51,960 nt of DNA from a phage. The notes beneath the pieces were generated by a model. That model saw only the letters and a list, made by a program, of their open reading frames with translations, was not told the origin of the DNA and did not search any database. The DNA is taken from sequence record PZ000615.1, one strand, 5' to 3'. Both the position numbers and the translations under genes were made by a program. Shown here in pieces: positions 30,303-51,960 of the stretch; position 1 is the first letter of the stretch; each line of letters opens with the position of its first letter.

Positions 30303-30354
30303 TACCGATCAGGGAGGTTAGCTCCTCCCTAAACTTTCCATTAAGGAGATTATC

Positions 30355-30882: not shown

Positions 30883-30888
30883 TTAATA

Positions 30889-30909
30889 GGGGGCGAAAGC
30901 CCCCTTTCT
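30889..30909 (+). terminator. Terminator/attenuator hairpin
   Basis: GGGGGC-GAAA-GCCCCC then TTTCT. Confidence 0.45.
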
Positions 30910-30926
30910 AATACCACAAATAATTG

Positions 30927-30954
30927 TTGACCGTTTAACAAAAAGTGCTATTAT
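30927..30954 (+). promoter_or_regulatory. Sigma70-like promoter (TTGACC-N16-TATTAT) with inverted palindromic element in spacer; upstream of capsid gene
   Basis: TTGACC 30927-30932, TATTAT 30949-30954; spacer contains TTTAACAAAAAGTGCTATT, the reverse complement of the early element. Confidence 0.45.
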
Positions 30955-31004
30955 GGAGCCGTGTTCAGCCAAAAGGCTCTATCAACCTAAAGAGGATAAT
31001 CATC

Positions 31005-31958
31005 ATGACGATGAAACTTGATTCATTCGAACAGAACGACATTGTAAACGGCCTCCGCAAGATGGGCGTTGAAGCAGATAAATGTGACCAGTTAGGAATT
31101 TGGACTGTTAACCAGCTCAAGCAGACGCTGAAGCGTCAATATGAGGCGATGTATCCTGAAACTTCAGCTCTCAAGCTGTTCCCAGTAACAACCGAGCTGG
31201 CTCCGACAACTACCAACTTTGAATACCTGAAGTTTGACGGCGTGGCAATGGCAAAAATCATCGCTGACTACACCGACGACCTTCCAACCGTTGAAGCGAT
31301 GTCAAGTGTCGAAACTGGTCGAGTTCACCGACTGGGTAACGCGTGGTTAATCTCCATTGATGAGATCAAAACTGGCGCGGCAATGGGTAACAGCCTGTCA
31401 GACCGTAAAGCGACTCTGGCTCGTGAAGCTCATGAAACCCTGGTTAACAAGCTGGTGTTTAAAGGCTCTCGTCCTCACAAAATCGTAAGCGTGTTCGACC
31501 ATCCGAACATTACCCGAATCACCTCCGCGCCTGGCGCTTGGGCTGATCCGGAACTGGCAAGCGAAGAGCTGACCGACCTGATCGAGAAAATCGAAACTGT
31601 TACTAACGGTCTGCACCGTGTAACCGATATCGTTATTCCTCCGTCTCAGCGTCGACTGCTGGCTAAGCGTATGCCGGAAACGACCATGACATATCTGGAC
31701 TGGTTCAAGTCTCAGAACAACGGCATCGAGATCACCTCTATTGCCGAGCTGGAAGATATCGACGGCGCTGGCACTAAGGCGGTTCTCGCTTACGAGAAAT
31801 CTCCGATGAATATGTCCATCGAGATTCCTGAGGCGTTTAACATGCTGCCTATGCAGCCGAAAGACCTGCACTTCAAAGTACCTTGCACCTCCAAAGCCAC
31901 TGGCTTGATCGTGTATCGTCCTCTGACCATGGCAATGCTCATCGGCGTAGGTAAGTAA
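31005..31958 (+). CDS. Major capsid protein (lambda gpE-like)
   Basis: ATG 31005 after AAGAGGA (track ORF 30945..31958 has an upstream extension); size, position, strong promoter upstream and strong terminator downstream. Confidence 0.7.
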   Translation: MTMKLDSFEQNDIVNGLRKMGVEADKCDQLGIWTVNQLKQTLKRQYEAMYPETSALKLFPVTTELAPTTTNFEYLKFDGVAMAKIIADYTDDLPTVEAMSSVETGRVHRLGNAWLISIDEIKTGAAMGNSLSDRKATLAREAHETLVNKLVFKGSRPHKIVSVFDHPNITRITSAPGAWADPELASEELTDLIEKIETVTNGLHRVTDIVIPPSQRRLLAKRMPETTMTYLDWFKSQNNGIEITSIAELEDIDGAGTKAVLAYEKSPMNMSIEIPEAFNMLPMQPKDLHFKVPCTSKATGLIVYRPLTMAMLIGVGK

Positions 31959-31963
31959 TCGAA

Positions 31964-31993
31964 AGCCCCTGATTAATTTCAGGGGCTTTTTTG
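31964..31993 (+). terminator. Rho-independent terminator after major capsid gene
   Basis: AGCCCCTGA-TTAAT-TTCAGGGGCT followed by TTTTTT. Confidence 0.7.
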
Positions 31994-32058
31994 TTGACTA
32001 ATCAATCCGCATAATGGTAATCTACAGACCTCAACAACAATTGACTAAGGAGTCAAAA

Positions 32059-32421
32059 ATGGCTGGTTTAACTAAAGAAGAAAAAGCAGCACGCGCAGCA
32101 GCAGCAGCGGCGGCAGCAGCAGAAACTGTAACTATCCCTGAGAATGAACTCCCTCGCGAGAATCATAAGATTGTCGTACTGGTTCACGGGCTGGTTCGCA
32201 TCGGTAAGCAGGACTTTGTTACTGACGACGTGGTTGAAATCACCGACGAGCAATTGCAATCTCAGGCGATCAAATATCTGTTCGTTAAGGGGTTCGTTGA
32301 GTTCCTGGACGCTCGCGATAAGACTCGCGAATTCGTGAAAGAAATCCGCTCCGGCAATCGAATCAAAGAGCAGCCCGAAAAGACGGTTGAAGAACTCGAA
32401 AAGGGCGCTGAGATTAAGTAA
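32059..32421 (+). CDS. Hypothetical structural-module protein with poly-Ala N-terminus
   Basis: ATG 32059 after AAGGAG; KAARAAAAAAAAE run; flanked by terminators. Confidence 0.45.
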   Translation: MAGLTKEEKAARAAAAAAAAAETVTIPENELPRENHKIVVLVHGLVRIGKQDFVTDDVVEITDEQLQSQAIKYLFVKGFVEFLDARDKTREFVKEIRSGNRIKEQPEKTVEELEKGAEIK

Positions 32422-32426
32422 CCGAA

Positions 32427-32455
32427 TGGGGCGCTACGGCGTCCCTTTTTTTTTA
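32427..32455 (+). terminator. Rho-independent terminator
   Basis: GGGGCGC-TACG-GCGTCCC followed by T9. Confidence 0.6.
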
Positions 32456-32471
32456 ACTGGAGAAAACCACA

Positions 32472-32876
32472 ATGAACGATTACCAGGAAATATTAGTTAT
32501 CATGCGCAGACTTGCTCCGCCTCTTGGTCAGGTTCCAGATGAGTTGTTGGTTGCCTGGGTTGAGCTAGCTAGCATGTTTGTATGCGGTCACAGGTTCAAA
32601 GACAAGCACGCTCACGCTTTGGCTCTGTACACGATGCACCTGATGTTTTTGGATGGTGCGATGAAAACTGAGGATGAGGACGTTGAGAGCTACTCGCGCC
32701 GAGTAACTGAATTCTCCCTGAACGGTGAATTTACTCAGCGATTCGCAAGCATCTCAAGCGAGAACCAGTCAGGGAAGGTTATACGCTCAACTCCGTGGGG
32801 TAAGATGTACGAGATCCTTAATAAAAAGATGGGCGGCGGGTTTGGTCTGATCACTGGGTTTAAGAGAGGTTGCTGA
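32472..32876 (+). CDS. Putative head-tail connector/adaptor
   Basis: Position after capsid; ~130 aa. Confidence 0.45.
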
Positions 32877-33250
32877 TGAACTACAAGCAGATTCAGAAAA
32901 TGGCTAGCGCTGGGATCAGAAACTTTTCTGACGATAACGGATGGTTTGATATCATCATTAGCGGCGGCGGGAAGAAAGTCGTTGGCGGGAAAGAGGTCAT
33001 TATTCCGGAGGAGAGAGGTATTCTCAAGGGTGCTGTTCGAGACGTTAATGATCGTGACGTAAACGGAGACTCCATCCGAGCTGGAGACAAACGCGGGTTT
33101 TTCACTTGCGATCAGGAAATAAAGCAGGGTATGCGCGTCATCATTGACGGCGAGATGTACACCGTAGTGAACGCGAGAGCCATAAAGCCAACTGGCACAG
33201 TGGTTGCTTACCGCCCTATACTCCGGCGCGTGGCGGTAGCAAATGGCTAA
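32876..33250 (+). CDS. Putative head closure / head-tail joining protein
   Basis: ATGA coupling; position. Confidence 0.4.
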   Translation: MNYKQIQKMASAGIRNFSDDNGWFDIIISGGGKKVVGGKEVIIPEERGILKGAVRDVNDRDVNGDSIRAGDKRGFFTCDQEIKQGMRVIIDGEMYTVVNARAIKPTGTVVAYRPILRRVAVANG

Positions 33251-33671
33251 CTACACCATAAAGCAGTTTCACAGCACTGTTGATGAGTGGATTAAAGCGG
33301 CTGAGAACAACCTATTCGAGGTCGTGAAAATAGCTTGCTCTGACATCCACCGCGACTTAGTTATGAACTCTCCGGTTGATACAGGGCGCTTTCGTGGCAA
33401 CTGGCAGATAACCTTTAACCGGATGCCACTGTACGCTCTAAATCAATATGACAAGGAGGGTGCTAAAACAATTGCGGAGGGTCAGCGAGCGCTTAGCCTT
33501 TTCGGTAAAGGCTCTGGCATAACGACCATCTATTTCTCCAATATGCTCATCTACGCTAACGCGCTTGAGTACGGTCATTCAAAACAGGCTCCGGCTGGCG
33601 TTCTTGGTATCGTAGCTGTCAGGCTGAGATCGTACTTTGCTAAAGCGGTGAGAGAGGCGAGGGCAAAATAA
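33243..33671 (+). CDS. HK97 gp10-like tail component
   Basis: SPVDTGRFRGNW resembles HK97 gp10 family VDTGxLRxS motif. Confidence 0.5.
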   Translation: MANYTIKQFHSTVDEWIKAAENNLFEVVKIACSDIHRDLVMNSPVDTGRFRGNWQITFNRMPLYALNQYDKEGAKTIAEGQRALSLFGKGSGITTIYFSNMLIYANALEYGHSKQAPAGVLGIVAVRLRSYFAKAVREARAK

Positions 33672-34075
33672 TGCATTACGAACTATATGAGGCTAGCGCT
33701 GAGTTTGTGGCGTCAATCATCCAGGATAGTGACAACCTTGTTGCCTGGGAGAATATCTCTTTCACTCCACCTGTAGACGGATCGGAATACTACCGATTCA
33801 ACTACAAAGAGGCTGACACGGTAACGGTATCACTTGATCGCAAGTGTGCTTACTTTGTCGGAATGGTTCAGGTCGATGTTGTGTTTGCGCCTGGCTCCGG
33901 CATTAGTGTAGCAAGAAAGTTAGCCGCCGATGTTGCAAAAAGTGCTGTCGATGGTACAATGCTTGCGACAGGTTATATTTTATCTCGTGGTGAGGTTCAC
34001 CCCGTTCAGAAATCAGACACGGGCTGGTTCATTCCGGTTCGGTTCTATGTTAGATGTGAAACAAAAGGAGCATAA
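33671..34075 (+). CDS. Putative tail terminator/completion protein
   Basis: TAATG coupling; position upstream of major tail gene. Confidence 0.4.
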   Translation: MHYELYEASAEFVASIIQDSDNLVAWENISFTPPVDGSEYYRFNYKEADTVTVSLDRKCAYFVGMVQVDVVFAPGSGISVARKLAADVAKSAVDGTMLATGYILSRGEVHPVQKSDTGWFIPVRFYVRCETKGA

Positions 34076-34076
34076 C

Positions 34077-34733
34077 ATGCACTTACCAAACGGTTCTCAA
34101 ATCTTTGTTGAAAACACTCGTGACGTTGAAGTCGCAGTGACCGAGCTAACCAACGCCAAAAACCCAGTCGCAACTGTTGCAGACGGGACAAAGTTCAAAG
34201 CTGGTGATTACGCGCTCGTGACCTTCTCCAGTTGGGCGGCTCTCACTAACCGCGTGGTTCGTATCAAGTCAGTGGCAACAAACGATCTGACTATTGAGGG
34301 TTTCGACTCCTCAGACACGAACAAATATCCGGCTGGTGCCACTGCGTCAATCGTCAAAATTCTGACCTGGGTTGAAATCCCTTGCGTTCAGGATCTGGCG
34401 CAGGAGGGTGGCGAGCAGCAGTTTTACAACTATCAGTGTCTTGCTGATGACCGTGAGCAGCAGTTGCCAACGTTCAAGTCAGCCGTGTCTCTGACGTATA
34501 CTTTTGCGCACGAATACGACAACCCGATCTATCCGGTTCTGTCGAAAGCGGAGGAGTCCGGCGAGGTAAAAGCTCTCCGCATGTTCATCCCTAAAGCGAA
34601 AGAGATGCGTATGTACTCCGGCGTTCTGTCGTTCAACGACATCCCACAGACGACCATGAACGAAATGGAAACCGTTTCGTTAGCCGTTGCTCTGAAAGGT
34701 AAATTCGAATCCGTTCCTGCTGAGGCGGTATAA
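34077..34733 (+). CDS. Major tail (tube) protein
   Basis: ATG 34077 after AAAAGGAG; position upstream of G/T chaperone pair; followed by terminator. Confidence 0.6.
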   Translation: MHLPNGSQIFVENTRDVEVAVTELTNAKNPVATVADGTKFKAGDYALVTFSSWAALTNRVVRIKSVATNDLTIEGFDSSDTNKYPAGATASIVKILTWVEIPCVQDLAQEGGEQQFYNYQCLADDREQQLPTFKSAVSLTYTFAHEYDNPIYPVLSKAEESGEVKALRMFIPKAKEMRMYSGVLSFNDIPQTTMNEMETVSLAVALKGKFESVPAEAV

Positions 34734-34738
34734 AATTA

Positions 34739-34768
34739 AGGGAGGGCGCTTGCTCTCCCTTTTCTTTT
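34739..34768 (+). terminator. Rho-independent terminator after major tail gene
   Basis: GGGAGGGCGC-TT-GCTCTCCC followed by TTTTCTTTT. Confidence 0.55.
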
Positions 34769-34814
34769 GTGTATAATCAACGCAACGAAACAACAAACCA
34801 CTGGAGTAAAACAA

Positions 34815-35141
34815 ATGGCTAAGATGAAACTCACTATCAAAAAACGTCCCGATTTCAAACTCAAGCTTGAGCTGCAAATGCCTGACACTGATGACGTTGC
34901 GGTTGTAGTCCTTGACGTTGAGCACCGCAAAGCCAAGGAGCTTGCAGATCTGTTCAATGCTCCGGATGAAAAGCGTCCTGATGATGTAACTTTCTTCAAG
35001 GAGTTCGTGAAGGGGTGGGATCTGGAGGAGGAGTTCAACGACGAGAACATTAAGGAAGTCATTGAATGGTTCCCGAACATCATGGTTACGTTCACCTATG
35101 AGTACATGAAAGCTCTCACGGGTCAGCGAGTAAAAAACTAA
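34815..35141 (+). CDS. Tail assembly chaperone (lambda gpG-like)
   Basis: Acidic ~108-aa protein upstream of tape measure; slippery heptamer A AAA AAC at its 3' end. Confidence 0.6.
   Translation: MAKMKLTIKKRPDFKLKLELQMPDTDDVAVVVLDVEHRKAKELADLFNAPDEKRPDDVTFFKEFVKGWDLEEEFNDENIKEVIEWFPNIMVTFTYEYMKALTGQRVKN
35132..35138 (+). other. Programmed -1 ribosomal frameshift slippery site (A AAA AAC)
   Basis: Heptamer X XXY YYZ in G frame, 1 nt before G stop; -1 frame reads KKLKRAVFLLHQKPPTDAEL into T ORF. Confidence 0.55.
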
Positions 35142-35158
35142 AAAGGGCTGTTTTCTTA

Positions 35159-35461
35159 TTGCACCAAAAGCCGCCAACAGATGCAGAACTTGAAGCAGCC
35201 GGATTCACCAGGGCTGACTATGAGGAAGATGAGGATAATCTCGAAGAGGTGATCTTCTCTGAAGAAATGGCGGCATCATGGGAGGTGTTTACGGCAATGT
35301 CAACGCAATGGAGATACGCTCCGAACGGAGTTATTACAGGGCTTGATTATAATACCTTTCCAATGGTGGCAAAACTCTATAAAATAGAGGACGAGGAAAT
35401 AGCCTTTGAAGATTTACGAGTTCTTGAGCGTGCCACGCTCGAAATAGCTCACAAACAATAG
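35159..35461 (+). CDS. Tail assembly chaperone T-like extension, probably expressed as G-T fusion by -1 frameshift
   Basis: Open frame in -1 relative to G with no convincing own start; continuous with G after shift at 35132-35138. Confidence 0.5.
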   Translation: MHQKPPTDAELEAAGFTRADYEEDEDNLEEVIFSEEMAASWEVFTAMSTQWRYAPNGVITGLDYNTFPMVAKLYKIEDEEIAFEDLRVLERATLEIAHKQ

Positions 35462-35499
35462 CGCTCCTCGTGGGCGCTTTTTTTATACCTGGAGGTTTT

Positions 35500-38448
35500 A
35501 TGTCTGAAAATCAAATCGCTGGCTTGAGTATGTCAGTCGACGTCTCCCAGGTGAATGAGGCGACTAAATCACTTGCCAATTTTAAACAGGCCAACAACGA
35601 GACAAAGCGAAGCGTTGAAGATCTGGCGGCGGCTGAGGCAATGGCGCGAGCCAAGGCAAAAGCCCTTAAAGAGGAGCAGGAAAATTTAGCGGCTGAAACA
35701 CTGGCGTTGAAGCGCGGCCTTGACGGTATCGTTAAGTCTATTGATCCCACGGCTGGGAAGATGCAAAAGCTCGCTGAGGCGGCAAAGCAATTAGACCGAG
35801 CCTGGGAGAAAGGGATTGTTCCTGATAAGGAGTTTTTCCGCCTTGGTGAGGTGATTGATAACCAGTCAGCGAAGTTACGCAATGCACAGCTCGCACTGAC
35901 TGAGGAAGGTCGTGCGGCGATTGAAAACTCTAAGGCCAAGCAGCGAGCAACAAGCGCGAGCAAGTCATTCCTTGATAGCTTGAGAGAGCAAGCCGAAACG
36001 ACTGGAATGAGCAAGATCGAGTTGCTCGAATACAAAGCCGCGCAGATGGGCGTAACGGCTCAAGCCGCTCCAATGATTGCAAAGCTTAACCAGCAGAACA
36101 AAGCAATGAACGTTGCAGGGTTGAGCGCCGGACGTTATCGCATGGCAATGCAGCAATTGCCAATGCAGATCACAGATGTGGTGACTTCACTTGCCTCTGG
36201 TATGCCTGTTTGGTTGGTGGCTATTCAGCAGGGCGGTCAAATTAAGGACAGCTTTGGCGGCGTAGGCAATACGTTCAAGTTACTGTTACAGCAGATCACG
36301 CCGTTACGTGTGGCGATGGTTGGACTCGTTGGGGCGATGGCTGGGATTGGGCTGTCAGCATACGACGCATACAAGGCGAACCGTCAGTTCGAAACATCTC
36401 TCATTCTGACTGGTAATTACGCAGCTACGTCAGCGGGTCAGTTATCAGAGTTGACGTCTGAGCTGAACAAGAACAGCCTTTCAACAATCGGATCTCTTGA
36501 TAAGATTGCTGGCACTCTGGCAAGCTCAGGGAAATACACTCTGAACCAGATCAAGGAGATCACGGCAGTAACGGCGGATTGGTCAGAGGTGACTGGAGAG
36601 TCAACAGATAAGATCATTGACTACTTCGACGACATCGCAAAAGATCCGGTTAAAGGTCTGGCGAAACTTAACGAGCAGTTTAACTTTTTGGATAAGGGTC
36701 AACTGACCTATATCTCGAACCTTGAGAAGACCAAAGGGAAAACGGCGGCTGTTACCGAAGCGACGAAACTGTTTGCTGATGTAATGGAAAACCGAATCGC
36801 CAAGATCGCAGACACCGCGACACCTCTTGAAAAGATGTGGACTGACATTAAGAAGTGGTCGGCTGATGCGTGGCGTTGGGTTGGAGATCATACGATTGGC
36901 GCTCTCAACCTGATAACTGACGTTGTGGCTGGTACGATTGAGCAGATCAGATACCTGATTAACTCAGGCGACATGATGATCAGTCAATTCGTGGTTGACA
37001 CTGCGAACGTCATGAGCAAGATTCCAGGAACAAGCAACTTCTTTAAGGGGATCGCAAAAGAACAGCAGCAGTTTGTTGACGATACCAAGCAGAAGAACGC
37101 AGACCTGCTAAAGAGCATTGCTGAGCGTGACGCTCGAATCCGTAAGGGTGAGATGGGGTACATTGAAGCAGCCAAGAAGCGCGGAGAAGCTGACAAGCAG
37201 TACGCCGAAACCACAAAGGACGCGGTACGGAAAGAGGCTGAGCAGTTAGCCAAAAAGAACGCGGTTCGTAAGCAAGGAGTCGCAGACGGAATCAAAGTTT
37301 CGGAACAGTACCAGGCTGAGCTACTTGCTCTTGAAGCTCAACTGAAAGTTTTGCAGGATCACAAGGCGCTTGACGATAAGATTTCACAGCAGCGTAAAAC
37401 ATACTGGAACGATGTCGCCAAATTCCAGATTCTTGAGCAAGCAGCAAAGACCAGAGCACTGACGGCGGATGAGAAATCATTGTTAGCCAACAAGTCAATC
37501 ATCCTTGCATACTCTGAGCAGAAAGCTTTGCTCGGTGATAAGATCGTAGGCCAGGAGAGAATGAACGCCTTACTTGATAAGAGCGCGAAAACAATCCTTG
37601 AGCTGGATCAGAAAATGGCATCAATGGACGCCACTAAAGGCATGGGTGACATGGCTAAGCGCCGAGCTGATGAGATTGCCAAGATGAAAGCCGACTGGGA
37701 GAAAGGCGGGGGAAGTCTTGACGACAAGGCTTATCAGGATATGGAGAAAAAGCAAGTAGAGTATTATGAGCGAGAGGATTCATTGCGCTCTGACTGGTTG
37801 GCTGGCGCTGCGAATGGATTTGCGACTTGGGCGGAGAATGCTGGTAATATGTACGCTCAGACGGGAGCTGTTGCTCAGGCGACTATGTCGGGCATGACGG
37901 ATGAGATCACGAACTTTGTTACAACTGGCAAGGCTGACTTTGCAGACTTCACGGCTAACATCCTCAAGATGATCGCCAAGATGCTTGTCCAAATGGCTTT
38001 GCTTAACGCAATGAAAGCCGCGTTTGGTGGCACTGCTTTTGGTAACATGATGGGGATGTCATCTCATGCAAACGGCGGCGTTGTTGGTAACGGGTTCGCT
38101 CGTGGCGGTTATACCGGAAACGGCGGTAAGTATGAACCAGCCGGAATTGTTCACCGTGGTGAGTTCGTTTTCACCAAGGAGGCAACAAAAAGGATTGGTG
38201 TCGCAAACCTTCACAGAATGATGCGTGGTTACGCGAGCGGCGGAGTTGTTGGTGGCTCATCCTCTGGCGGTGGCTCTGGCGGCGGTGGTGTTGTGATCGG
38301 AGTTGGCGATATCAATATCAACGGGATGGGTGGAGTCGACCAGTCAGCAGCGAAAGGAATGGAACAGGGTGTTCGTCAGGTCGTCATGGATGTGCTTAAC
38401 AGAGAGTGCAGCCAGGGCGGTAGAATTTACCAGCTTGTGAGGGGCTAA
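35500..38448 (+). CDS. Tail tape measure protein
   Basis: ATG 35500 after GGAGG; ~980 aa, helical N-terminal two-thirds, Gly-rich C-terminal region, position after G/T. Confidence 0.8.
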   Translation: MSENQIAGLSMSVDVSQVNEATKSLANFKQANNETKRSVEDLAAAEAMARAKAKALKEEQENLAAETLALKRGLDGIVKSIDPTAGKMQKLAEAAKQLDRAWEKGIVPDKEFFRLGEVIDNQSAKLRNAQLALTEEGRAAIENSKAKQRATSASKSFLDSLREQAETTGMSKIELLEYKAAQMGVTAQAAPMIAKLNQQNKAMNVAGLSAGRYRMAMQQLPMQITDVVTSLASGMPVWLVAIQQGGQIKDSFGGVGNTFKLLLQQITPLRVAMVGLVGAMAGIGLSAYDAYKANRQFETSLILTGNYAATSAGQLSELTSELNKNSLSTIGSLDKIAGTLASSGKYTLNQIKEITAVTADWSEVTGESTDKIIDYFDDIAKDPVKGLAKLNEQFNFLDKGQLTYISNLEKTKGKTAAVTEATKLFADVMENRIAKIADTATPLEKMWTDIKKWSADAWRWVGDHTIGALNLITDVVAGTIEQIRYLINSGDMMISQFVVDTANVMSKIPGTSNFFKGIAKEQQQFVDDTKQKNADLLKSIAERDARIRKGEMGYIEAAKKRGEADKQYAETTKDAVRKEAEQLAKKNAVRKQGVADGIKVSEQYQAELLALEAQLKVLQDHKALDDKISQQRKTYWNDVAKFQILEQAAKTRALTADEKSLLANKSIILAYSEQKALLGDKIVGQERMNALLDKSAKTILELDQKMASMDATKGMGDMAKRRADEIAKMKADWEKGGGSLDDKAYQDMEKKQVEYYEREDSLRSDWLAGAANGFATWAENAGNMYAQTGAVAQATMSGMTDEITNFVTTGKADFADFTANILKMIAKMLVQMALLNAMKAAFGGTAFGNMMGMSSHANGGVVGNGFARGGYTGNGGKYEPAGIVHRGEFVFTKEATKRIGVANLHRMMRGYASGGVVGGSSSGGGSGGGGVVIGVGDININGMGGVDQSAAKGMEQGVRQVVMDVLNRECSQGGRIYQLVRG

Positions 38449-46010: not shown

Positions 46011-46029
46011 TTTAGCAAAAAGTGCTATT
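46011..46029 (+). promoter_or_regulatory. Inverted copy of palindromic element upstream of tail fibre gene
   Basis: TTTAGCAAAAAGTGCTATT (reverse complement of AATAGCACTTTTTGCTAAA) embedded in larger inverted repeat AATAGCG...GCTATT; between terminator 45964-45985 and tail fibre start. Confidence 0.3.
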
Positions 46030-46049
46030 CATAACATGAGGGCTTGACA

Positions 46050-48029
46050 ATGGCAATTTATAGAAAAGGTGAGGCATCACTCGCGGCAGACGGTACTGTT
46101 ACCGGATACGGTACGAACTGGAAAGATCAGCTTGCTCTGGTTCGAATCGGCGCGACCGTCGTATTCCTGACTGGTAACGCAATTAGCGCTATCGGGACGG
46201 TATCGGCTATCGTGTCTGAAACTCAACTTCAAACCATTCAGACTGACGGCGCTGTCGTTGCCCGTGGTAAGTATTTCATCCTACTGCATGACTCGCTGAC
46301 GGTTGACGGCCTGGCGCAAAACGTTGCTGAGACACTCCGTTATTATCAGTCACAAGAAACTGAGATTGCTGACGCGGTTGATTATTTCAGAACTTTCGAC
46401 TGGGAGAAGTTTGAGAAGATCGCGACATCGGTTAAGACCAGCGCGGCGGCTGCTAAGGTTTCAGAAACCAACGCCAAAACATCAGAGACGAACGCCAAGG
46501 CTAGCGAGAATGCGTCACTGCAAAGCAAGAACTCGGCGGCAGGTTCAGCTACGGCAGCAAAAACCAGTGAGACTAACGCAAAGACGTCTGAGACTCGCTC
46601 AAAGACTTCAGAGACTAACTCTGCTGCATCGGCTGTAACGGCAACCAACGAGGCAGACCGAGCCAAGCGTGAAGCTGATCGCGCTGCGGCGGCTAACCCT
46701 GACAACGCGTTACTGAAAGCGAATAACCTGAGTGACGTTCCGGATAAGGCGGCTGCAAGGGCTAACCTTCAAATCGATAGATTTAACCAAGACTCAACAA
46801 CTGAGACAAGGATTCTGTCTGGTGATAAGTCTCAGGCTATGATTGTGTCAACTGGTTCCACGTGGGGAGTGTACAGGTTTGGATCTGGTTGGGTTCCTCT
46901 AGAGATTGCTCAGGGCGGAACCGGAGCAAGCAATGCAGAAGGGGCAAGGAAGAGCTTGCAGTTAAGTGGTGATGACTACGTCAACTTTAATGGATTATCT
47001 TTGAAAAACCAGTTAACGATGAGTAGCAACGGGCAGCCAATTTCACCAACGCTGCTTACAAGGGTGTTTGATGCAAGTGGAAGCAACCTTCTCGGTTCTG
47101 CTGAATTGAGAGCTAACTCAAATGGTAACGTAGAACTCGTTAATAGGATTTCTGGATCGCCAAGGGCGCTGGCGCTATTCCCTGATGGTTCTGTTGCTTT
47201 TTCATCGTTTAATGGCAGATTCATAAGTCAAGGCATGGGTCTTGGGGTCGGTCGAGATATTTCTACTGGTTACGTACTCAATGCAATGAAGGATGTCATC
47301 AACAACGGAGAAACTCAGGCGTTCAGGGTTACTGGGACTGGTGGCATGGTTATTGGTGGAGTTAACTTCCAATATGCACCTTCAATGTCATTCCATTCTG
47401 GAGATGTAGTAGGGGCTTTGTGGGTTGACTACAGGACTGGTAACGCAATGACTGTTTCCGGAACAAGGTCATCTATACTTGGTAACACGACTCCAAATCA
47501 GAACGTGTTATGGGGTACTGCTAACACAACTGTTGACGCTAACGGATTTTTGAAAAGGGCATCACCAATAGTCAAGATTATGAGTAATTCATTTGAGACT
47601 AATGAAGAGTCCGAGGGCGTTTTAGTAACAAGGGTTGGAGTTGGTGAATATCTTGTTTCGGGATGTCTTGGGCTTCATTCAGATCTTGCGTGGGGTGGCG
47701 TAGATGGAGGATTTGAAGTTCCAAAAGACAGGAATGGACAGAACAAGATATGGGTTGACTATGACATGAAAGAGGATGGTTCAATTCTGGTTAAAACCTA
47801 CCACAGGGAGTATAAAGACGTTCCTGAGTTCGCCAAAAACAAGAAGGATGGTTTTGAGGATGGTCAGCCTATTGATATCCCATATGACTCATTCTTAAGC
47901 ATTCGAGTTGAAATGCCGGAGGACAGCGCATACAACAAGAGAATTAGGGAGGCCGAATCAGATGTAAGAAGCAACGCAAACAGGGAATGGTGGAGTAAAA
48001 TACACGAAACTGGTTGCGAGGAGGAATAA
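46050..48029 (+). CDS. Tail fibre protein
   Basis: ATG 46050; N-terminal repeated KTSETNAK / Ala-Ser-Thr-rich collar motif typical of phage tail fibres; divergent C-terminal domain. Confidence 0.7.
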
Positions 48030-48059
48030 AAAAAGGAGCCGTAAGGCTCCTTTTCTTTT
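48027..48059. terminator. Bidirectional terminator between convergent tail fibre and ssb genes
   Basis: A-run, GGAGCC-GTAA-GGCTCC, T-run; same stem sequence as terminator at 8382. Confidence 0.6.
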
Positions 48060-48061
48060 GC

Positions 48062-48502
48062 TTAGAATGGAATATCGTCGTCGAAATCCATCGGTGGGCT
48101 GTTTTGTGGTTTATTGCTTTGCTGCTGTTGTTGTCGTGGCTGTTGATTTCCTTTTGGCTGCTGAGGCTCACCCCATGCGCCTTGTTGCTGCTGCTGAGAT
48201 CGCTGGCTGTAGATTAGTTGAGCAAATCCGGCTGGCTGCAACGTTACGTAGGTTGTTCCGTTGTGCTCGCGAATGACTGGCTTGAGCTGATCGCACTGCA
48301 CAGAGATTGTTTTTCCTAGCTGGAACGCATCGCGATACCAGTTCATCAGGCCGTCTGTTTTCGCGTTGAAAAAGAACGTGTAGTTAGTATACTCTCGCGT
48401 CCCTTCACGGTTCTTGTACGACTCGCTAAGCTCAATGATGAATGTCGTTTCGTTGTGGATGCGCGGCTCTTTGCGGATCTCTCCGGTGATAATATGAGGC
48501 AT
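48062..48502 (-). CDS. ssb: Single-stranded DNA-binding protein
   Basis: OB-fold-sized N-terminus, Gln/Pro-rich linker, acidic C-terminal tail DFDDDIPF. Confidence 0.8.
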   Translation of the reverse strand: MPHIITGEIRKEPRIHNETTFIIELSESYKNREGTREYTNYTFFFNAKTDGLMNWYRDAFQLGKTISVQCDQLKPVIREHNGTTYVTLQPAGFAQLIYSQRSQQQQQGAWGEPQQPKGNQQPRQQQQQSNKPQNSPPMDFDDDIPF

Positions 48503-48546
48503 GGTTAACTCCTGATTGGTTGGCGGGTTTCCCCGCCTGTTTTGAT

Positions 48547-49218
48547 TTAGTCGAAGCTCTCAATATCTTGAGGCTCTGGCTGTTTTTTTGATTCAGGTTC
48601 GGATTTTACAGCATCCTTAACCTTGTTTACAGCTTTCTTTTGAACGGCTGTAAATCCACCTGCTGATCCGACAGTTAGAGCTGCCTTGCGTTTCTCATAG
48701 CGTTCCTGGATGATTGGCTTATCAACAGGGCTTGAAGCGCTCCAGGCTTTACCAAACTGCTCAGTCAACTCATCCATACTCTCACACTTGTCGAGTCGCT
48801 TGTTCCAGTCCTTGGCGCTCATCACTGCAATTTGCGCGTCATCGTCTGCCTGAGATAAACCAAGCGCAGCAACCAGGCCGTAACGACGGGCGTATGTGAA
48901 AGCAGATCCCATTCCCTGAGGGTCAGCCTTTACTACAGGGAGAACAGCCAAGTAAGAGATGAACTGACCTGATACGTGTCGTATGGTGGTTATTACGCGA
49001 ATCTCTTTGCTGTTGCTCTCTTCAGACATTGACTGCTCAATCATCAGCATCTCGCTTTCAAGCGGAGGAGTCACAGTGTCAAGAACGCTGTCAAGAGTAG
49101 CATATTTACCCTTACCAGCTCCGCCGTTAACCTTGTCTTTCAGAACCTTTACGAACTTCTGTCGCGCTCGAAAGATCGCAGGGAAAAGTTCAGTTGTAAC
49201 GTTTGATTGCATTTTCAT
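48547..49218 (-). CDS. erf: Erf-family single-strand annealing protein
   Basis: Segment GMGSAFTYARRYGLVAALGL typical of Erf family; adjacent to SSB and exonuclease. Confidence 0.6.
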   Translation of the reverse strand: MKMQSNVTTELFPAIFRARQKFVKVLKDKVNGGAGKGKYATLDSVLDTVTPPLESEMLMIEQSMSEESNSKEIRVITTIRHVSGQFISYLAVLPVVKADPQGMGSAFTYARRYGLVAALGLSQADDDAQIAVMSAKDWNKRLDKCESMDELTEQFGKAWSASSPVDKPIIQERYEKRKAALTVGSAGGFTAVQKKAVNKVKDAVKSEPESKKQPEPQDIESFD

Positions 49219-49275
49219 TATTCATGCCTTTTGTGTTTTGTAGGGTGGCAGTATATCACCGCCACCGATTAAATG

Positions 49276-50325
49276 CTATTGGTTATCTTGAGAGAAAAGC
49301 TCTTTGAATTGGTACTTCACAAACTCCGGAGTAGGGAGTTCAACTTCATCGGCGTTATTCTCATAACTAGGCCAAACGTCATTTTTTACGCACTCAGCAA
49401 ACACGTGAATGACGCTGGTGTACTGCTGACGACCAATCGTTAACTGAGCGTGGTTCATAGTGAAACCGAGTGGCAGGAAAGGCATTTTCTTTTCCTGAGC
49501 CAGGAACCGGATAACGATAGGTCGAGTCTCCTCAAACGCCGCCTTGAACAGATCCCGTTGCAATGCCATTTTCAGGTAATAGCCAAGGTTAAACGCATGG
49601 CGAGCAAATTCAGAAGGCTTAACACTCTGAGTGGTCTTGTAGTCAGTAATAACCACAATCTCCGGATGAATCTCAGGATCGTAACCGTATCGACGGATTA
49701 TGTCTGGGTCTGTGATCGTGTCGACGTGATCGAGTCTAACCTTAACCTTAACCCCGAAAATGGTTCCGAAGATTGAAATCTCACGCAATGCTGTTTTGCT
49801 GTTGATGGTTGCAGCGTGGCGCGGGATGTTCAGTAACGTCTGACGCATGTATTTGCAAGAGTCATAATCCTCAGCCTTAACGAGTTCCTTACCCTCACTT
49901 TTCGCGTTCCACTCCGCGAGCATATCCTCAAGCCACAGAACGTTTACATCAATTTCGTTCTTTGCCGCCATAACCAGCAACTCAGGATATCCCTTACCGC
50001 TAGTACCAATCAGGCCACACGCCTTTAGCTTTGACGCCAGGGCTGTTTGACTCGTGATGCAGTCTTTCAGCTCTCCAGCCATAACACCGCGAGCGTACAA
50101 GCTTTCAAACTTCTCGACCTCAAGCATCATCGTATGTGACTGAGTACCGAAAGCCAAAGCTTGAGTTTCAACTCGCTCCTTGAATTTCCAACTCGCTGGT
50201 GACTTCTCGTGAATCTCTGCGAGAGATGATCCTGATACATACTCAGAAACCCAAGTATCCTCAGCGTGATACTCATCGTTTGACATCTCCTCGTTGAGGA
50301 AATACTGAAAGCGTGGCTGTTCCAT
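49276..50325 (-). CDS. PD-(D/E)xK-type exonuclease (recombination exonuclease)
   Basis: Track ORF 49276..50388 starts at TTG; ATG at 50325 after CAGGAG; motifs RLDHVD and VITDYKT (D...D/ExK). Confidence 0.55.
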   Translation of the reverse strand: MEQPRFQYFLNEEMSNDEYHAEDTWVSEYVSGSSLAEIHEKSPASWKFKERVETQALAFGTQSHTMMLEVEKFESLYARGVMAGELKDCITSQTALASKLKACGLIGTSGKGYPELLVMAAKNEIDVNVLWLEDMLAEWNAKSEGKELVKAEDYDSCKYMRQTLLNIPRHAATINSKTALREISIFGTIFGVKVKVRLDHVDTITDPDIIRRYGYDPEIHPEIVVITDYKTTQSVKPSEFARHAFNLGYYLKMALQRDLFKAAFEETRPIVIRFLAQEKKMPFLPLGFTMNHAQLTIGRQQYTSVIHVFAECVKNDVWPSYENNADEVELPTPEFVKYQFKELFSQDNQ

Positions 50326-50355
50326 ATCTGACTCCTGTTCGTTTGTGTGTTGTGG

Positions 50356-50399
50356 AGTATACCCGATCTCATTCGTTGCGTTTAGCAAAAAGTGCTAAT
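50356..50399 (-). promoter_or_regulatory. Promoter-like cassette (minus orientation) upstream of exonuclease-erf-ssb operon
   Basis: Minus strand AATTAGCACTTTTTGCTAAA then TATACT ~21 nt downstream, then CAGGAG SD and ATG 50325. Confidence 0.4.
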
Positions 50400-50407
50400 T
50401 TTCACTC

Positions 50408-50860
50408 AACGGAGGATTGCGGAAATTTACGGAGGATTTGAAATCTGGCTCTAAGCCTTGCCACTACTGGATTTGTCGACAATCTACGCCGGAAAATGTC
50501 GATTTTCTCGCTCTATAGACACCAAAAACGCAGAAAACAGGCACAAAAAAAGATCCAATAACCCAATAATCAACATAATCCTCCGTAAATAAATAATATA
50601 CATCACATAGATAATGATAATATCTATATATATTAGACACTTACGTATATCTAAAGGTTGAAAATAGCTCATTATTTGAACGAAATTCGCGGAGGATTGA
50701 TCCGGCGTAAATTCCGCAAATTCTGTAAGTAACTGATTTTGTTGAATGCAATTGCGGAGGATTTTTTCGTGAATCTCCCGTAAATCGGCCTTGTTTAAGT
50801 TTGTTAAATCTTTTTCCGGAGGATTGCGGAGGATTGCGGAGGGTTTGCGGAGGATTTTTC
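50408..50860. repeat. Iteron/AT-rich non-coding region B, paralogous to region A
   Basis: CGGAGGATT copies at 50410-50440, 50575-50588 (inverted), 50688-50700, 50750-50765, four tandem copies 50816-50856; AT-rich core 50580-50660; shares TACGCCGGAAAATGTCGATTT and ATAACCCAATAATCAACATAATCCTCCGTAAA with region A. Confidence 0.6.
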
Positions 50861-50887
50861 CGGCGTAAAAAAACCCGCCGAAGCGGG

Positions 50888-51829
50888 TTAGTTTTTGCGG
50901 TTGATTAGGACTATCGGATCGTAAAGTGCTCGCTTGCAACCGGATTTGAATCCTGAGCGGTCATCATTTGGAATGATAACTTTCAACTCCCTGTCATCTG
51001 CCATGTATAGAGTATCAAGATCGCCTGACGCACAAGCCACTCTAAGCTCACGCTCTCCGGTATACCTGTATGCGACAATCTCAAGGTTGCTAGGCTCAAT
51101 GCACGCCCAACACTCTTGGCCTGTAGCCTCATGAACTCGGACGGCATCAAACCACGAATTAACAAGGTATATGGCTTTGTCTGTCGATCCTACCTTTATG
51201 ACTGCTCCTCTCGTGTAGTCTCTGGCATAGAACCGCTCATCGCCAAGCTCATCTATAAATAGAAGGTTGCAGTATTCATCATCAAGATCATCTCCCTGCA
51301 CGAGCTGCATCGGGAGTACGTGAAAAACGCTCTCAGCTCCATTCTCAAGGGTTTTCACGCCTACATCGAATGATTCACCTATTAGCCCCTCAAACATCGT
51401 CAGAGGCGTCTGCGCTCGCTTCTCAGTCCTATCCAGAACCGCCTGGCATTTGTCATGCTCGGCAGTAGCTCCAAAGCTGTAGCCTGGGTCTTTCGCGGCT
51501 CTCTTGTTCTGCTTGATTACATATTCCTGAGGAACCTTGCCGAGGAATCTACCGAGGATGTTAATGCATTCACTGTAAGGCTCGCCGGACAACTTCATAA
51601 GCCAGCCAATCCCTTTGTCAGCTCCGCAATTGTTGCAATAAGCCCAACCGTCACCGACCTTGTTGTCCTTTTTGTTTGTCCAACGAAATCTATCCTTACC
51701 GCCACAGTGAGGGCAGTCCTGATGCTTGCCGTTGAAGTATTTCGAGTTCAGGCCGCAAATGCTTTGGAGCGCGTCTTGCCACATGTTAGCCATGTATGGG
51801 ATCACGTCCTCCTCCTGGTACATCATCAT
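50888..51829 (-). CDS. DNA primase (zinc-ribbon + TOPRIM-like)
   Basis: N-terminal CPHCGG...RFRW...CNNCG zinc ribbon; C-terminal acidic motifs GDLDTLY and IIPNDDRSG. Confidence 0.55.
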   Translation of the reverse strand: MMMYQEEDVIPYMANMWQDALQSICGLNSKYFNGKHQDCPHCGGKDRFRWTNKKDNKVGDGWAYCNNCGADKGIGWLMKLSGEPYSECINILGRFLGKVPQEYVIKQNKRAAKDPGYSFGATAEHDKCQAVLDRTEKRAQTPLTMFEGLIGESFDVGVKTLENGAESVFHVLPMQLVQGDDLDDEYCNLLFIDELGDERFYARDYTRGAVIKVGSTDKAIYLVNSWFDAVRVHEATGQECWACIEPSNLEIVAYRYTGERELRVACASGDLDTLYMADDRELKVIIPNDDRSGFKSGCKRALYDPIVLINRKN

Positions 51830-51854
51830 TTTTCAATTCTCCAAAATAGAAACG

Positions 51855-51900
51855 GGCGCGATCATAATAACCGCGCCCGTGTGGGATTGTTTAGCTTTTA
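51855..51900 (-). promoter_or_regulatory. Promoter-like cassette (minus orientation, variant) upstream of primase
   Basis: Minus strand AATAAGCACTAAAAGCTAAA; hairpin GGGCGCGG...CGCGCCC in spacer; TATTAT; GGAGA SD. Confidence 0.35.
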
Positions 51901-51960
51901 GTGCTTATTTTACTACTCGGAGCATTTCTCGACGGTCACAGCGAGTGGTTAGAGCCTTGC

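Follow-up and report, generated by a model that had tools for sequence, protein, structure and literature searches.

The phage sequence PZ000615.1 (51,960 nucleotides; this whole stretch is referred to below as the window) contains three leftward genes between positions 48062 and 50325. A preliminary description, made from the sequence alone, proposed that they encode an exonuclease, an Erf annealase and a single-strand DNA-binding protein (SSB), that they are co-oriented behind one promoter cassette, and that together they form a complete Red-like recombination system. The locus raises the questions of whether these family assignments hold, whether the genes are transcribed as one unit, and what the block would do for the phage. 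The window is a genome-sized relative of Eclunavirus, with 81-84% DNA identity to Enterobacter phages Phc and Ec_L1, and the locus is very probably the recombination block conserved in T1-like phages, in this case a virulent one of the Eclunavirus type (Drexlerviridae).

Gene block and family assignments

The open reading frame (ORF) listing contained the three minus-strand ORFs at exactly the coordinates given in the preliminary description, and all of the motifs quoted there were found in the translations. The genes and their parts are as follows.

49276..50325, minus strand: exo, predicted RecE-type PD-(D/E)xK 5'-3' dsDNA exonuclease, 349 aa (profile, solved-structure and fold matches)
exo, aa 60-64: motif GTQSH
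exo, aa 197-202 (49720-49737): motif RLDHVD
exo, aa 226-231 (49633-49650): motif ITDYKT
48547..49218, minus strand: erf, predicted Erf-family single-strand annealing protein, 223 aa (Pfam, PHROG and PDB matches)
erf, aa 16-135: ERF domain; the remaining C-terminal part is variable and acidic
erf, aa 108-121 (48856-48897): motif TYARRYGLVAALGL
48062..48502, minus strand: ssb, predicted divergent OB-fold SSB, 146 aa (PHROG 44, AF2 model and Foldseek)
SSB, aa 1-99: OB domain, followed by a disordered Q/P-rich linker and the host-type tip PPMDFDDDIPF
SSB, aa 141-146 (48065-48082): motif DDDIPF

The genes are separated by 57 nt (exo-erf) and 44 nt (erf-ssb), each is preceded by a Shine-Dalgarno sequence, and the trio is bracketed upstream by the primase-gene terminator and one cassette of repeat plus -10 hexamer, and downstream of ssb by a bidirectional terminator. 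The assignments of all three products survived the profile, solved-structure and (for exo and SSB) fold tests, with family matches far beyond chance and homologues in the hundreds, and the profile searches placed neither the annealase nor the exonuclease in an unrelated family.

The ORF lister gave a longer form of exo (370 aa) starting from a TTG at 50388. We rejected this form in favor of the ATG at 50325, because the TTG lies inside the TTGCTA of the upstream repeat, while the ATG has an AGGAG 8 nt upstream and agrees with the annotated starts in Ec_L1 and Phc. The product matched Pfam PF12684 (DUF3799; E = 3.7e-16, 60 bits against a cut-off of 26), PHROG 412 (exonuclease VIII; E = 2.8e-97) and, over the C-terminal part of the model only, the NCBIfam RecE model (8e-15). 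The RecE structure 3H4R in the PDB was also matched by sequence (1.5e-4), with DYK of the phage protein aligned to DVK and GTQSH aligned to GTAFH of RecE, and it was the best PDB match in a Foldseek search with the AF2 model (pLDDT 88.9; E = 1.4e-9, target-normalised TM 0.75). Residues H64, D199, D228 and K230 were invariant in 26 homologues, so that the catalytic H...D...D-x-K set is intact in this alignment, and exonuclease VIII of T1 (P0218) is 51% identical. These sequence and model comparisons support a RecE/DUF3799-type PD-(D/E)xK nuclease with predicted exonuclease activity. The PD-(D/E)xK family expected for exo was thus recovered through the DUF3799/RecE match, but membership of the YqaJ/lambda-exonuclease families, for which profile searches had also been proposed, was rejected: Pfam gave no match to YqaJ (PF09588) at E<=0.1, and lambda exonuclease (6m9k) ranked 48th in the Foldseek search (E = 0.24), far behind RecE at rank 1.

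The Erf assignment was confirmed by Pfam PF04404 (ERF), which matched aa 16-135 above the gathering score, as anticipated (E = 4e-18, 66.3 bits against a cut-off of 25), and by the Erf-like PHROG 155 (9.7e-38) and PHROG 2324 (1e-34); homologues were found in 1255 phage records. The full length of the protein was matched by 'Gp77' (PDB 9y6u; E = 9e-57), a solved coliphage Erf. By tblastn, Gp77 is 100% identical to Erf of coliphages SLUR29, orkinos and the JLBYU series, which identifies its origin in a Drexlerviridae genus different from that of the present phage. The Gp77 sequence accounts for 48 chains over two PDB entries (9y6u and 9y9c), a number that suggests a large oligomer. A literature search for 9y6u/Gp77 found no paper describing the entry, and the Avs preprint was ruled out on inspection as its source. 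The sequence matches support an Erf-family single-strand annealing protein, for which annealing is predicted.

The third product is more divergent. No Pfam family, PF00436 included, matched it at E<=0.1, the NCBIfam SSB models scored far under their cut-offs, and the NCBIfam and PDB sequence matches covered only the tail (aa 94-146). PHROG 44 (SSB) matched aa 2-146 (E = 1.8e-12). The AF2 model gives pLDDT >=89 and a beta1-3/helix/beta4-5 topology for aa 1-100, and pLDDT <50 for the linker at aa 105-134. Among the best 50 PDB matches in Foldseek, 47 were bacterial or mitochondrial SSBs and the others were PriB and two trypanosome OB-fold proteins, although the match is a moderate one (E ~2e-4, target-normalised TM ~0.5, rmsd ~5 A). 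The final 11 residues, PPMDFDDDIPF, are also the end of the enterobacterial SSBs of E. coli and Klebsiella. In 28 homologues, F140, D141, D143, I144, P145 and F146 of the tip were invariant and D142 was present in >=90%; among the aromatic residues of the OB domain, Y38, Y41, F43 and F44 were invariant and W55 and F60 were present in >=90%. For the SSB, the PHROG match, the OB fold and the DDDIPF tail bore out the preliminary description, but a Pfam SSB match was not obtained. The profile match and the fold model support a divergent OB-fold SSB, with predicted binding to single-stranded DNA. Whether the tail was recently acquired from host ssb was examined by blastn of 48062-48230 against a set of 5,426 complete E. 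coli genomes, and no match was obtained; this is weak negative evidence, because the low-complexity filter may have masked the Q-rich part and Enterobacter genomes lie outside the search.

Comparison with related phages and known recombination systems

The trio is already annotated in the closest relatives. Ec_L1 (NC_042122) has exonuclease VIII (gp84), an Erf-like ssDNA annealing protein (gp83) and a single strand DNA binding protein (gp82), and the product names in Phc (MZ669808) agree with those of the Ec_L1 RefSeq record. Both phages share with PZ000615.1 the gene order and orientation, the neighbours (a convergent tail fibre gene and an upstream primase gene), the hairpins and the upstream region, with protein identities of ~87-91%. 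The differences are only those of species-level sequence divergence, with a different terminator sequence after ssb and a TCCTCCG repeat count differing by +/-1. The trio is also syntenic in T1, Hanrivervirus, Webervirus and Rogunavirus. T1 has the orthologous ST29 (RecE-like), ST28 (Erf-like) and ST27, followed by a terminator pair and a convergent tail-fibre gene, and the orthologues in TLS are Gp51, Gp53 and Gp54. This layout varies: TLS and Hanrivervirus have a further small gene, not present in PZ000615.1, that separates exo from erf. In T1 the orientation of the block relative to the primase gene is inverted, so that exo has cor and not primase as its upstream neighbour. The trio is the standard, previously annotated T1-like (Drexlerviridae) recombination block, and the original observation is for this reason correct but ordinary; it adds one orthologue set to a block annotated in a congeneric RefSeq record and recognised since the T1 genome.

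Among well-known systems, RecE of the E. coli Rac prophage has the C-terminal nuclease fold and the catalytic residues in common with exo, at 18% identity. RecE has 866 residues, whereas exo, with 349, is without the long N-terminal region and has ~90 residues more than the RecE nuclease core. RecE/RecT is also a two-component pair of exonuclease and annealase, with RecT as the partner instead of Erf. The Erf of phage P22, the founding member of the ERF family, shares the ERF domain (PF04404) with the present protein. In P22, Erf is paired with Arf and with the anti-RecBCD Abc proteins, and is not known to have a dedicated exonuclease as partner. Phage lambda Red (Exo, Beta, Gam) likewise has adjacent genes for a 5'-3' exonuclease and a single-strand annealing protein, but both (the annealase being Red-beta) belong to families other than those of exo and Erf, and PZ000615.1, unlike lambda Red, encodes its own SSB. 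The likeness to Red is a functional analogy only. The part of the 'complete Red-like' claim that held is the adjacent, co-oriented exonuclease and annealase pair with a 57-nt gap, linked in at least five genera; the word 'complete' was overstated, because a PHROG scan of 10 neighbouring proteins showed no Gam-type RecBCD inhibitor.

Putative promoter cassette and the question of a single operon

The element at 50356-50399 noticed in the preliminary description is real, and consists of a perfect 15-nt core copy of a repeat followed by TATACT. The signals at and within the borders of the block are as follows.

50872..50889, minus strand: intrinsic terminator closing the primase gene, with a 7-bp GC stem and then a run of seven T, unchanged in Ec_L1 and Phc
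50379..50399, minus strand: T1-like 21-nt direct repeat AATTAGCACTTTTTGCTAAAC, which makes up the upstream half of the cassette, with a perfect 15-nt core match
50356..50361, minus strand: -10-like hexamer TATACT (TATAAT in Phc), at the fixed repeat distance of the family minus 1 nt
49244..49266, minus strand: exo-erf hairpin GGTGGCGGTGATATACTGCCACC, containing the extended -10-like TGATATACT, with no U-tract after it
48522..48537, minus strand: erf-ssb hairpin GGCGGG-GAAA-CCCGCC with a GNRA tetraloop, terminator-like on the plus strand only
48031..48054, both strands: bidirectional intrinsic terminator common to ssb (minus) and the convergent tail-fibre gene (plus)

In TLS and T1, a 21-nt repeat (aaATAGCACnnnTTGnTAAAA) is found in intergenic positions ~76 nt upstream of start codons, and its function is called open (PMC11447400). 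The cassette repeat agrees with this published definition in consensus, intergenic position and orientation with exo transcription, lies 74 nt upstream of the exo ATG, and is conserved in Ec_L1 and Phc. The 15-nt core TAGCACTTTTTGCTA gave 28 strand-hits (<=3 mismatches) in the window against 1.6 expected, and the repeat family comprises 22 oriented copies; in 16 of these, a hexamer that matches TATAAT in at least five of six positions stands at one and the same offset. The corresponding figure for T1 is 10 of 22 repeats, plus three at +1. Since the -10 hexamer stands at one fixed offset both here and in T1, the 21-nt repeat could be the upstream half of a non-canonical promoter. A literature search for the repeat string AGCACTTTTTGC found nothing relevant. 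A plain sigma-70 consensus scan called no promoter at 50356-50399, because the spacer from TTGCTA to TATACT is 21 nt, and a canonical sigma-70 promoter at this position was rejected on account of this spacing and the negative scan. The exo promoter of T1, by contrast, is a canonical TTGACT-17-TATAAT. A 10/12 sigma-70 site inside exo (49724-49697) was treated as chance, since the count of such sites is within the shuffle expectation.

The strongest hairpin is the terminator after ssb (-18.4 kcal/mol, z = -5.5), with a 13-bp stem and a U-run. Ec_L1 and Phc have other hairpin-plus-T-run sequences in the same place, and the T1 annotation has a terminator pair at the equivalent position. At the other end, the terminator of the primase gene may insulate the exo promoter from upstream transcription, judging from its sequence and position. 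Within the block, the exo-erf hairpin (-16.2 kcal/mol, z = -2.9) has 23 nt that are invariant in three Eclunaviruses while the flanks vary, and the erf-ssb hairpin (-14.3 kcal/mol, z = -3.4) shows one compensatory pair change in Ec_L1 (GGCGGC/GCCGCC); in three other genera the erf-ssb gap has hairpins of differing sequence. The terminator scan called the erf-ssb hairpin on the plus strand only, and it is not a sense-strand terminator. The intergenic hairpins are not known elements, since no Rfam family reached its gathering threshold anywhere in the window.

We consider it plausible from these signals that the block is one transcription unit, from the cassette to the bidirectional terminator at 48031-48054. 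One repeat cassette and a single terminal terminator were found, and the cassette as the one promoter is a plausible reading, but the canonical sigma-70 spacing is missing, and the conserved TGATATACT between exo and erf is a possible internal promoter. Erf and ssb together, or ssb alone, could instead have their own start, with the hairpins uncoupling their expression through attenuation or RNA processing. Such a division, which we consider rather unlikely, would fit the invariant exo-erf hairpin, whose TGATATACT holds a hexamer identical to that of the exo promoter, as well as the hairpins enclosing TATAGT in the exo-erf gaps of Webervirus and Rogunavirus. It would also fit the erf-ssb hairpin of Hanrivervirus JakobBernoulli, which is followed by a U6 run and has a true terminator shape, and the published TLS map, in which a repeat and a terminator lie inside the block (P51-gp51-DR9-gp52-T52; PMC11447400), so that transcription as one unit does not hold for every member of the family. 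However, no further copy of the 21-nt repeat is present between 48062 and 50325, no U-tract was seen after either intergenic hairpin of PZ000615.1, the gaps are short with a ribosome-binding site for each gene, and the complete exo-erf segment of Webervirus shows no folding advantage over shuffled sequences (z = -0.19).

Proposed function of the block

If the block is one unit, host RNA polymerase would start ~24 nt upstream of exo and produce a single exo-erf-ssb message, the stability or relative dosage of which may be tuned by the two conserved intergenic hairpins. Exo would resect double-strand ends in the 5'-3' direction, SSB would coat the 3' single strand and recruit host and phage partners through its host-type tip, and Erf oligomers would then anneal complementary strands. 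For a phage that has terminal redundancy, packages by the headful mechanism and carries no DNA polymerase of its own, this pathway would allow genomes to be linked as concatemers, replication to be re-initiated at DNA ends and breaks to be mended, with exchange between related phages as a by-product. The roles suggested in the preliminary description, in recombination-dependent replication and in mosaicism, are what we infer for the block. Work of the Ritchie laboratory in the 1980s reportedly showed that amber mutants of T1 affected in gene 3.5 or gene 4 recombine and form concatemers poorly, and that the host RecE pathway can rescue them. 'Recombination block of genes' is a stock wording for T1-like phages (PMC7718038), and in TLS the exodeoxyribonuclease Gp51, the recombinase Gp53 and the SSB Gp54 are listed under replication/recombination functions (PMC11447400).

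Two other roles were considered. Exo and SSB could serve mainly in host DNA breakdown and nucleotide scavenging, or in general replication support, with recombination being secondary. In T1 and TLS, early gene products break down the genome of the host, and its nucleotides are recycled (PMC11447400), any replication fork needs an SSB, and by profile searches the phage encodes a primase and a helicase without a DNA polymerase. We nevertheless regard this role as improbable: linkage of exonuclease and annealase genes is the signature of a two-component recombinase, the exo-erf linkage is maintained over at least five Drexlerviridae genera, and a distinct 'DNA repair exonuclease' (PHROG 704) is encoded at 4508-5644. 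For the 146-aa protein alone, it could be proposed that it mainly mimics the host SSB tail, titrating or hijacking SSB-interacting proteins of the host, and is not a working ssDNA binder. Its sequence likeness to host SSB is indeed confined to ~45 residues of the tail (E = 1e-7 to 6e-6), and the OB domain, missed by the Pfam SSB family, is only 12-20% identical to solved SSBs. Yet this domain is confidently folded and finds SSB-family structures almost exclusively, it is well conserved among 28 sequences with its aromatics, and PHROG 44 matches the full length, which makes mimicry alone very improbable.

RecE/Erf/SSB trios of Enterobacter-infecting phages are candidate recombineering tools for Enterobacter and Klebsiella, a modest practical value, and the host-matched SSB tail may aid their portability. 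Bacterial defence systems are also known to be triggered by proteins of this kind: Stevie, a T1-like phage, escapes Retron-Vpa2 through mutations that map to exo and the ERF-domain gene rec, 'in the same operon' (10.1101/2025.10.22.683967), and Avs21 is triggered by ERF-type annealases (Avs preprint).

Non-coding region upstream of exo

The best lead for further work is the 562-bp non-coding stretch directly upstream of exo; the promoter-repeat and origin questions are listed as open in the T1/TLS literature. Its main feature is the following.

50400..50871, minus strand: conserved non-coding region, with 8-9 copies of AATCCTCCGYAA flanking an AT-rich block (~50590-50650)

Some of the AATCCTCCGYAA copies are phased 10-11 bp apart, and the core ATCCTCCG has 17 matches, in two clusters, against 1.4 expected. 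The region is 92% identical among the three phages, compared with 81-84% for a 2.8-kb query dominated by the three coding genes, and a colinear second copy is present at 14.9-15.4 kb. T1 has a comparable layout upstream of exo, namely ~530 bp of non-coding DNA that contain short repeats as well as an AT-rich block, but its repeats are GTGTAACAG instead of AATCCTCCGYAA. One speculative reading, which we think rather unlikely, is that this region, physically linked to the recombination operon, serves T1-like phages as an origin of replication or as a master hub of regulation, with the 21-nt repeat as the upstream half of a non-canonical promoter for host polymerase. A 30-codon ORF at 50484-50576, preceded by a strong Shine-Dalgarno sequence, was rejected as a gene; its first eight codons recur in the copy at 15 kb and the remainder is unrelated there, so that the conservation is at the DNA level and not at the protein level.

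The exo-erf-ssb module and its relatives

The listing of open reading frames (ORFs) in the 46-52 kb region showed three successive, co-oriented ORFs where the preliminary description had placed genes for an exonuclease, an Erf annealase and an SSB:

48062-48502, minus strand, ssb, 146 amino acids (ORF list)
48547-49218, minus strand, erf, 223 amino acids (ORF list)
49276-50325, minus strand, exo, 349 amino acids, ATG start chosen

The ORF lister opened exo at a TTG codon (49276-50388), which we rejected because this codon falls within the upstream repeat. The in-frame ATG at 50325 has AGGAG 8 nt upstream and is the annotated start of the Ec_L1 and Phc orthologues; exo was therefore taken as 49276-50325, with the same end at 50325 as described previously. 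All of the peptide motifs quoted earlier were present: RLDHVD at residues 197-202 and ITDYKT at residues 226-231 of exo, TYARRYGLVAALGL at residues 108-121 of Erf, and DDDIPF as the final six residues of the SSB.

A megablast search of 47900-50700 against 50,697 phage records gave Enterobacter phages Phc (84% identity, 94% of the query) and Ec_L1 (81% identity); both belong to the genus Eclunavirus of the family Drexlerviridae. The window (51,960 bp) is colinear with Ec_L1 (51,894 bp) at this locus, and the Ec_L1 RefSeq names are "exonuclease VIII", "Erf-like ssDNA annealing protein" and "single strand DNA binding protein". The trio is orthologous to a module that is well known and has already been annotated. 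Its neighbours in profile searches are the usual T1-like set (primase, helicase, two methyltransferases, the PHROG-704 repair exonuclease, polynucleotide kinase, dNMP kinase, endolysin and spanin). The gene order is kept in Eclunavirus, Webervirus, Rogunavirus, Tunavirus T1 (as ST29-ST28-ST27) and Hanrivervirus, where an additional small gene separates exo from erf. Compared with T1 (29623-36431), the block of the tail fibre gene and ssb-erf-exo (window 46044-51829) is inverted relative to primase, so that exo adjoins primase here and cor in T1, and a large non-coding gap is attached to exo in both.

The three proteins

The exo product matched PF12684 (DUF3799, "PDDEXK-like"; 3.7e-16, over the gathering score) and PHROG 412 "exonuclease VIII" (2.8e-97), whereas the Pfam search gave no match to YqaJ. 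The match to the NCBIfam RecE equivalog was confined to the C-terminal nuclease part of the model, and E. coli RecE (3H4R) was the sole match of a phmmer search against PDB sequences. In the alignment with RecE, ITDYKT corresponds to IMDVKT and GTQSH to GTAFH, and H64, D199, D228 and K230 are invariant among 26 homologues, down to 49% identity. An AlphaFold2 model from the alignment of these homologues (pLDDT 88.9) had RecE as its top PDB match in Foldseek (E 1.4e-9, TM 0.75 on the target); the next matches were other PD-(D/E)xK nucleases (3l0a, Cas4-like ACE1, the AdnAB/AddAB nuclease domains and EXO5). The lambda exonuclease/YqaJ type was rejected, lambda exonuclease ranking 48th (E 0.24) and YqaJ having no Pfam match. 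The protein is a PD-(D/E)xK exonuclease, as described previously, of the RecE-type subfamily and not of the lambda exonuclease/YqaJ type; the exonucleases VIII of T1 and Rtp are 51% and 46% identical to it, respectively.

Residues 16-135 of the annealase matched PF04404 (ERF; 4e-18), and PHROGs 155 and 2324 "Erf-like ssDNA annealing protein" matched at 1e-37 and 1e-34. A close relative has been solved (PDB 9y6u/9y9c, "Gp77", 48 chains in total; E 9e-57, full length), and tblastn showed Gp77 to be 100% identical to Erf of the T1-like coliphages SLUR29, orkinos and the JLBYU series. Erf homologues were present in 1,255 phage records, mainly from Klebsiella, Escherichia and Salmonella phages. Annealases of the ERF family are sensed by Avs21.

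The ssb product had no Pfam family at E<=0.1, and its NCBIfam and PDB sequence matches were limited to residues ~94-146, a stretch similar to the disordered linker and tip of the SSBs of E. coli and Klebsiella; the host protein likewise ends in PPMDFDDDIPF. Over its full length, the phage protein matched PHROG 44 (SSB; 1.8e-12). For structure prediction, 269 homologues were gathered and 28 aligned. Residues 1-100 were predicted with pLDDT block means of 89-93 and a beta1-beta3/helix/beta4-beta5 topology, and residues 105-134 as disordered. Of the top 50 Foldseek PDB matches, 47 were bacterial or mitochondrial SSBs and the others were PriB and two trypanosome OB-fold proteins, with E ~2e-4, identity of 9-20% and TM of only ~0.5. 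We conclude that the protein has an SSB-type OB fold, diverged past Pfam detection, with a host-type tail. A test for a recent host-gene origin of the tail, which covered E. coli genomes alone and is weakened by low-complexity masking, was negative. Beyond DDDIPF, the homologues P0018, P0027, P0063, P0107 and P0110 continue for 15 conserved residues (ASVGLQYGKHRIYAL or similar). The C-terminal Phe, which is normally free and bound by partner proteins, would be buried by this extension, which could be a read-through product, a frameshift product or a real variant.

Profile searches for Erf, YqaJ/lambda exonuclease and SSB thus placed neither the annealase nor the exonuclease in an unrelated family. 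The observation in the preliminary description is confirmed. Its interpretation is likewise supported but needs correcting in three points: the subfamily of the exonuclease, the comparison with Red and the certainty of a single promoter.

Proposed function and comparison with lambda Red

The three linked genes encode proteins with the folds of their families, intact catalytic residues in the exonuclease and a host-type tip on the SSB. By analogy with RecE, SSB and Erf/Rad52-type annealases, the exonuclease would resect double-strand ends 5'-3', the SSB would cover the exposed single strand and recruit partners through its tip, and Erf would anneal complementary strands. T1 mutants in genes 3.5 and 4 reportedly fail to recombine and to form concatemers, a defect that the host RecE pathway relieves. 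Phages of the T1 type have no gene for a DNA polymerase, package by the headful mechanism and are terminally redundant (PMC11447400), and hence concatemer formation, end-primed replication restart and repair are the probable uses of the trio, with exchange between related phages as a likely by-product. In the T1 record, 2.8 kb are annotated as a repeat region. Replication/recombination functions have been given for TLS Gp51/53/54 (PMC11447400), and in the T1-like phage Stevie, mutations for escape from Retron-Vpa2 were found in exo and the ERF-domain gene rec of one operon (10.1101/2025.10.22.683967).

The expression "complete Red-like system" used previously is an overstatement. The linkage of exonuclease and annealase holds, but both enzyme families differ from those of lambda, and no Gam analogue was present among the scanned neighbour proteins.

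Predicted transcription signals

The trio had been placed behind one promoter cassette. Upstream of exo, AATTAGCACTTTTTGCTAAAC lies at 50399-50379 (minus strand) with the inverted repeat TAGCA-N5-TGCTA, followed by TATACT at 50361-50356 and, 24-30 nt further, by AGGAG and the ATG. This cassette is not new and is the published 21-nt repeat: TLS has 18 intergenic copies (aaATAGCACnnnTTGnTAAAA), oriented with transcription ~76 nt upstream of start codons, and the repeat also occurs in T1, Rtp and Rogue1, its function being posed as an open question with a stoperator, an enhancer site and an UP element as candidates (German et al. 2024, PMC11447400). In the window, the 15-nt repeat core was found repeatedly, and an oriented scan detected 22 copies of the T1-like repeat AATAGCACnnnnTGCTAAA, for example:

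371, 2892, 3996, 6787, 15462, 15832, 17492, plus strand, 21-nt repeat
18802, 19104, 20040, 21157, 21984, 22794, plus strand, 21-nt repeat
51905, 50396, 14717, 13749, 12832, 11278, minus strand, 21-nt repeat

A hexamer matching TATAAT in at least five of six positions follows 16 of these 22 copies at a single offset, 22 nt past TTGCTA; the same offset was found in 10 of 22 copies in T1, with three more shifted by one. The fixed offset suggests a non-canonical promoter with the repeat as its upstream half, a normal -35/-10 pair being ruled out by the spacer of 21-22 nt. The hexamer of the exo copy is 1 nt nearer to the repeat than the family offset, and the sigma-70 consensus scan did not call this cassette. 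Where the exo cassette lies here, T1 and JakobBernoulli have canonical TTGACT-17-TATAAT and TTGACT-17-TAAAAT, respectively, and Webervirus PKP126 has the repeat with TTGCAC-16-TATACT; the cassette therefore sits in the promoter's place. We treat it as a likely, putative promoter.

In many copies, a GC hairpin separates the repeat from its -10, resembling terminator-plus-promoter punctuation. The repeat cassette upstream of primase (51852-51905, minus strand) illustrates a -10 within a terminator-like hairpin: its TATTAT occupies the loop of a 9-bp GC hairpin, behind which a T-run lies. T1 often shows this arrangement (for example at 1452, 2271, 3537 and 4866 of the genome used, L006). The minus-strand copies at 46011-46026 and 30934-30949, inside or beside the plus-strand structural region, are opposite in orientation to the genes around them; both precede a GC hairpin, and neither has a -10 at the usual offset.

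The block contains no additional copy of the 21-nt repeat. The punctuation in and around it is as follows:

50889-50872, minus strand, strong intrinsic terminator at the end of the primase gene, 7-bp GC stem then T7
49244-49266, minus strand, exo-erf hairpin GGTGGCGGTGATATACTGCCACC, 23 nt in a 57-nt gap, -16.2 kcal/mol, z -2.9
48522-48537, erf-ssb hairpin GGCGGG-GAAA-CCCGCC with GNRA tetraloop in a 44-nt gap, -14.3 kcal/mol, z -3.4
48031-48054, bidirectional terminator with 13-bp stem, common to ssb and the convergent tail-fibre gene

An internal promoter for erf and ssb may lie in the exo-erf gap, since the hairpin, which is invariant in three Eclunaviruses with variable flanks, encloses the extended -10-like motif TGATATACT, and hairpins around TATAGT also occur in this gap of Webervirus (L004, 3412-3482) and Rogunavirus (L005, 2587-2654), although the Webervirus segment overall folded no better than shuffles. 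A single promoter for the trio is plausible but less certain than described previously. The erf-ssb hairpin has one compensatory pair change in Ec_L1, and hairpins of unrelated sequence occupy this gap in three other genera. It has no U-run after it on the sense strand and was terminator-like only on the plus (antisense) strand in the terminator scan; it may stop antisense transcription running in from the tail-fibre operon or make the upstream mRNA more stable. At the spot equivalent to 48031-48054, a terminator pair is annotated in T1.

The non-coding region upstream of exo

Between the terminator of the primase gene (50888-51829; PHROG 510, 1.8e-102) and the exo cassette lies a 562-bp non-coding gap with 92% identity among three Eclunaviruses, compared with 81-84% for the 2.8-kb query dominated by the trio. 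The window has two repeat modules:

50400-50871, upstream of exo, 8-9 copies of AATCCTCCGYAA and an AT-rich block
14900-15400, 8-9 copies of AATCCTCCGYAA, an AT-rich block and shared boxes

Upstream of exo, the AATCCTCCGYAA copies flank the AT-rich block on both sides, several of them 10-11 bp apart. For the core ATCCTCCG, 17 matches were counted in the window where 1.4 were expected, and 15 of them fall within two clusters (upstream of exo and 14908-15384), which are colinear copies of a ~400-bp module with extra shared boxes such as TTTACGGAGGATTATGTTGATTATTGGGTTAT and GAAATCGACATTTTCCGGCGTA. T1 has the same layout upstream of exo (29851-30377) with other repeats, namely the only three exact copies of GTGTAACAG in its genome and TGTAAC half-sites around an AT-rich palindromic block, and in JakobBernoulli the gap at this place is ~500 bp long and also includes an AT-rich block.

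Iteron-type origins look like this, with phased, lineage-specific repeats around an AT-rich block. The sequence makes the module upstream of exo a candidate replication origin, which we regard as a lead and not a result; a dense regulator-binding array or regulatory hub is equally possible. According to the papers on TLS and SU57 (PMC11447400, PMC7718038), neither an origin nor iterons were found. The region also contains a hydrophobic mini-ORF of 30 codons (50484-50576, minus strand) with a strong GGAGG ribosome-binding site. Only its first 8 codons recur at ~15.2 kb, the remainder being different, and its conservation therefore appears to be at the DNA level and not at the protein level.
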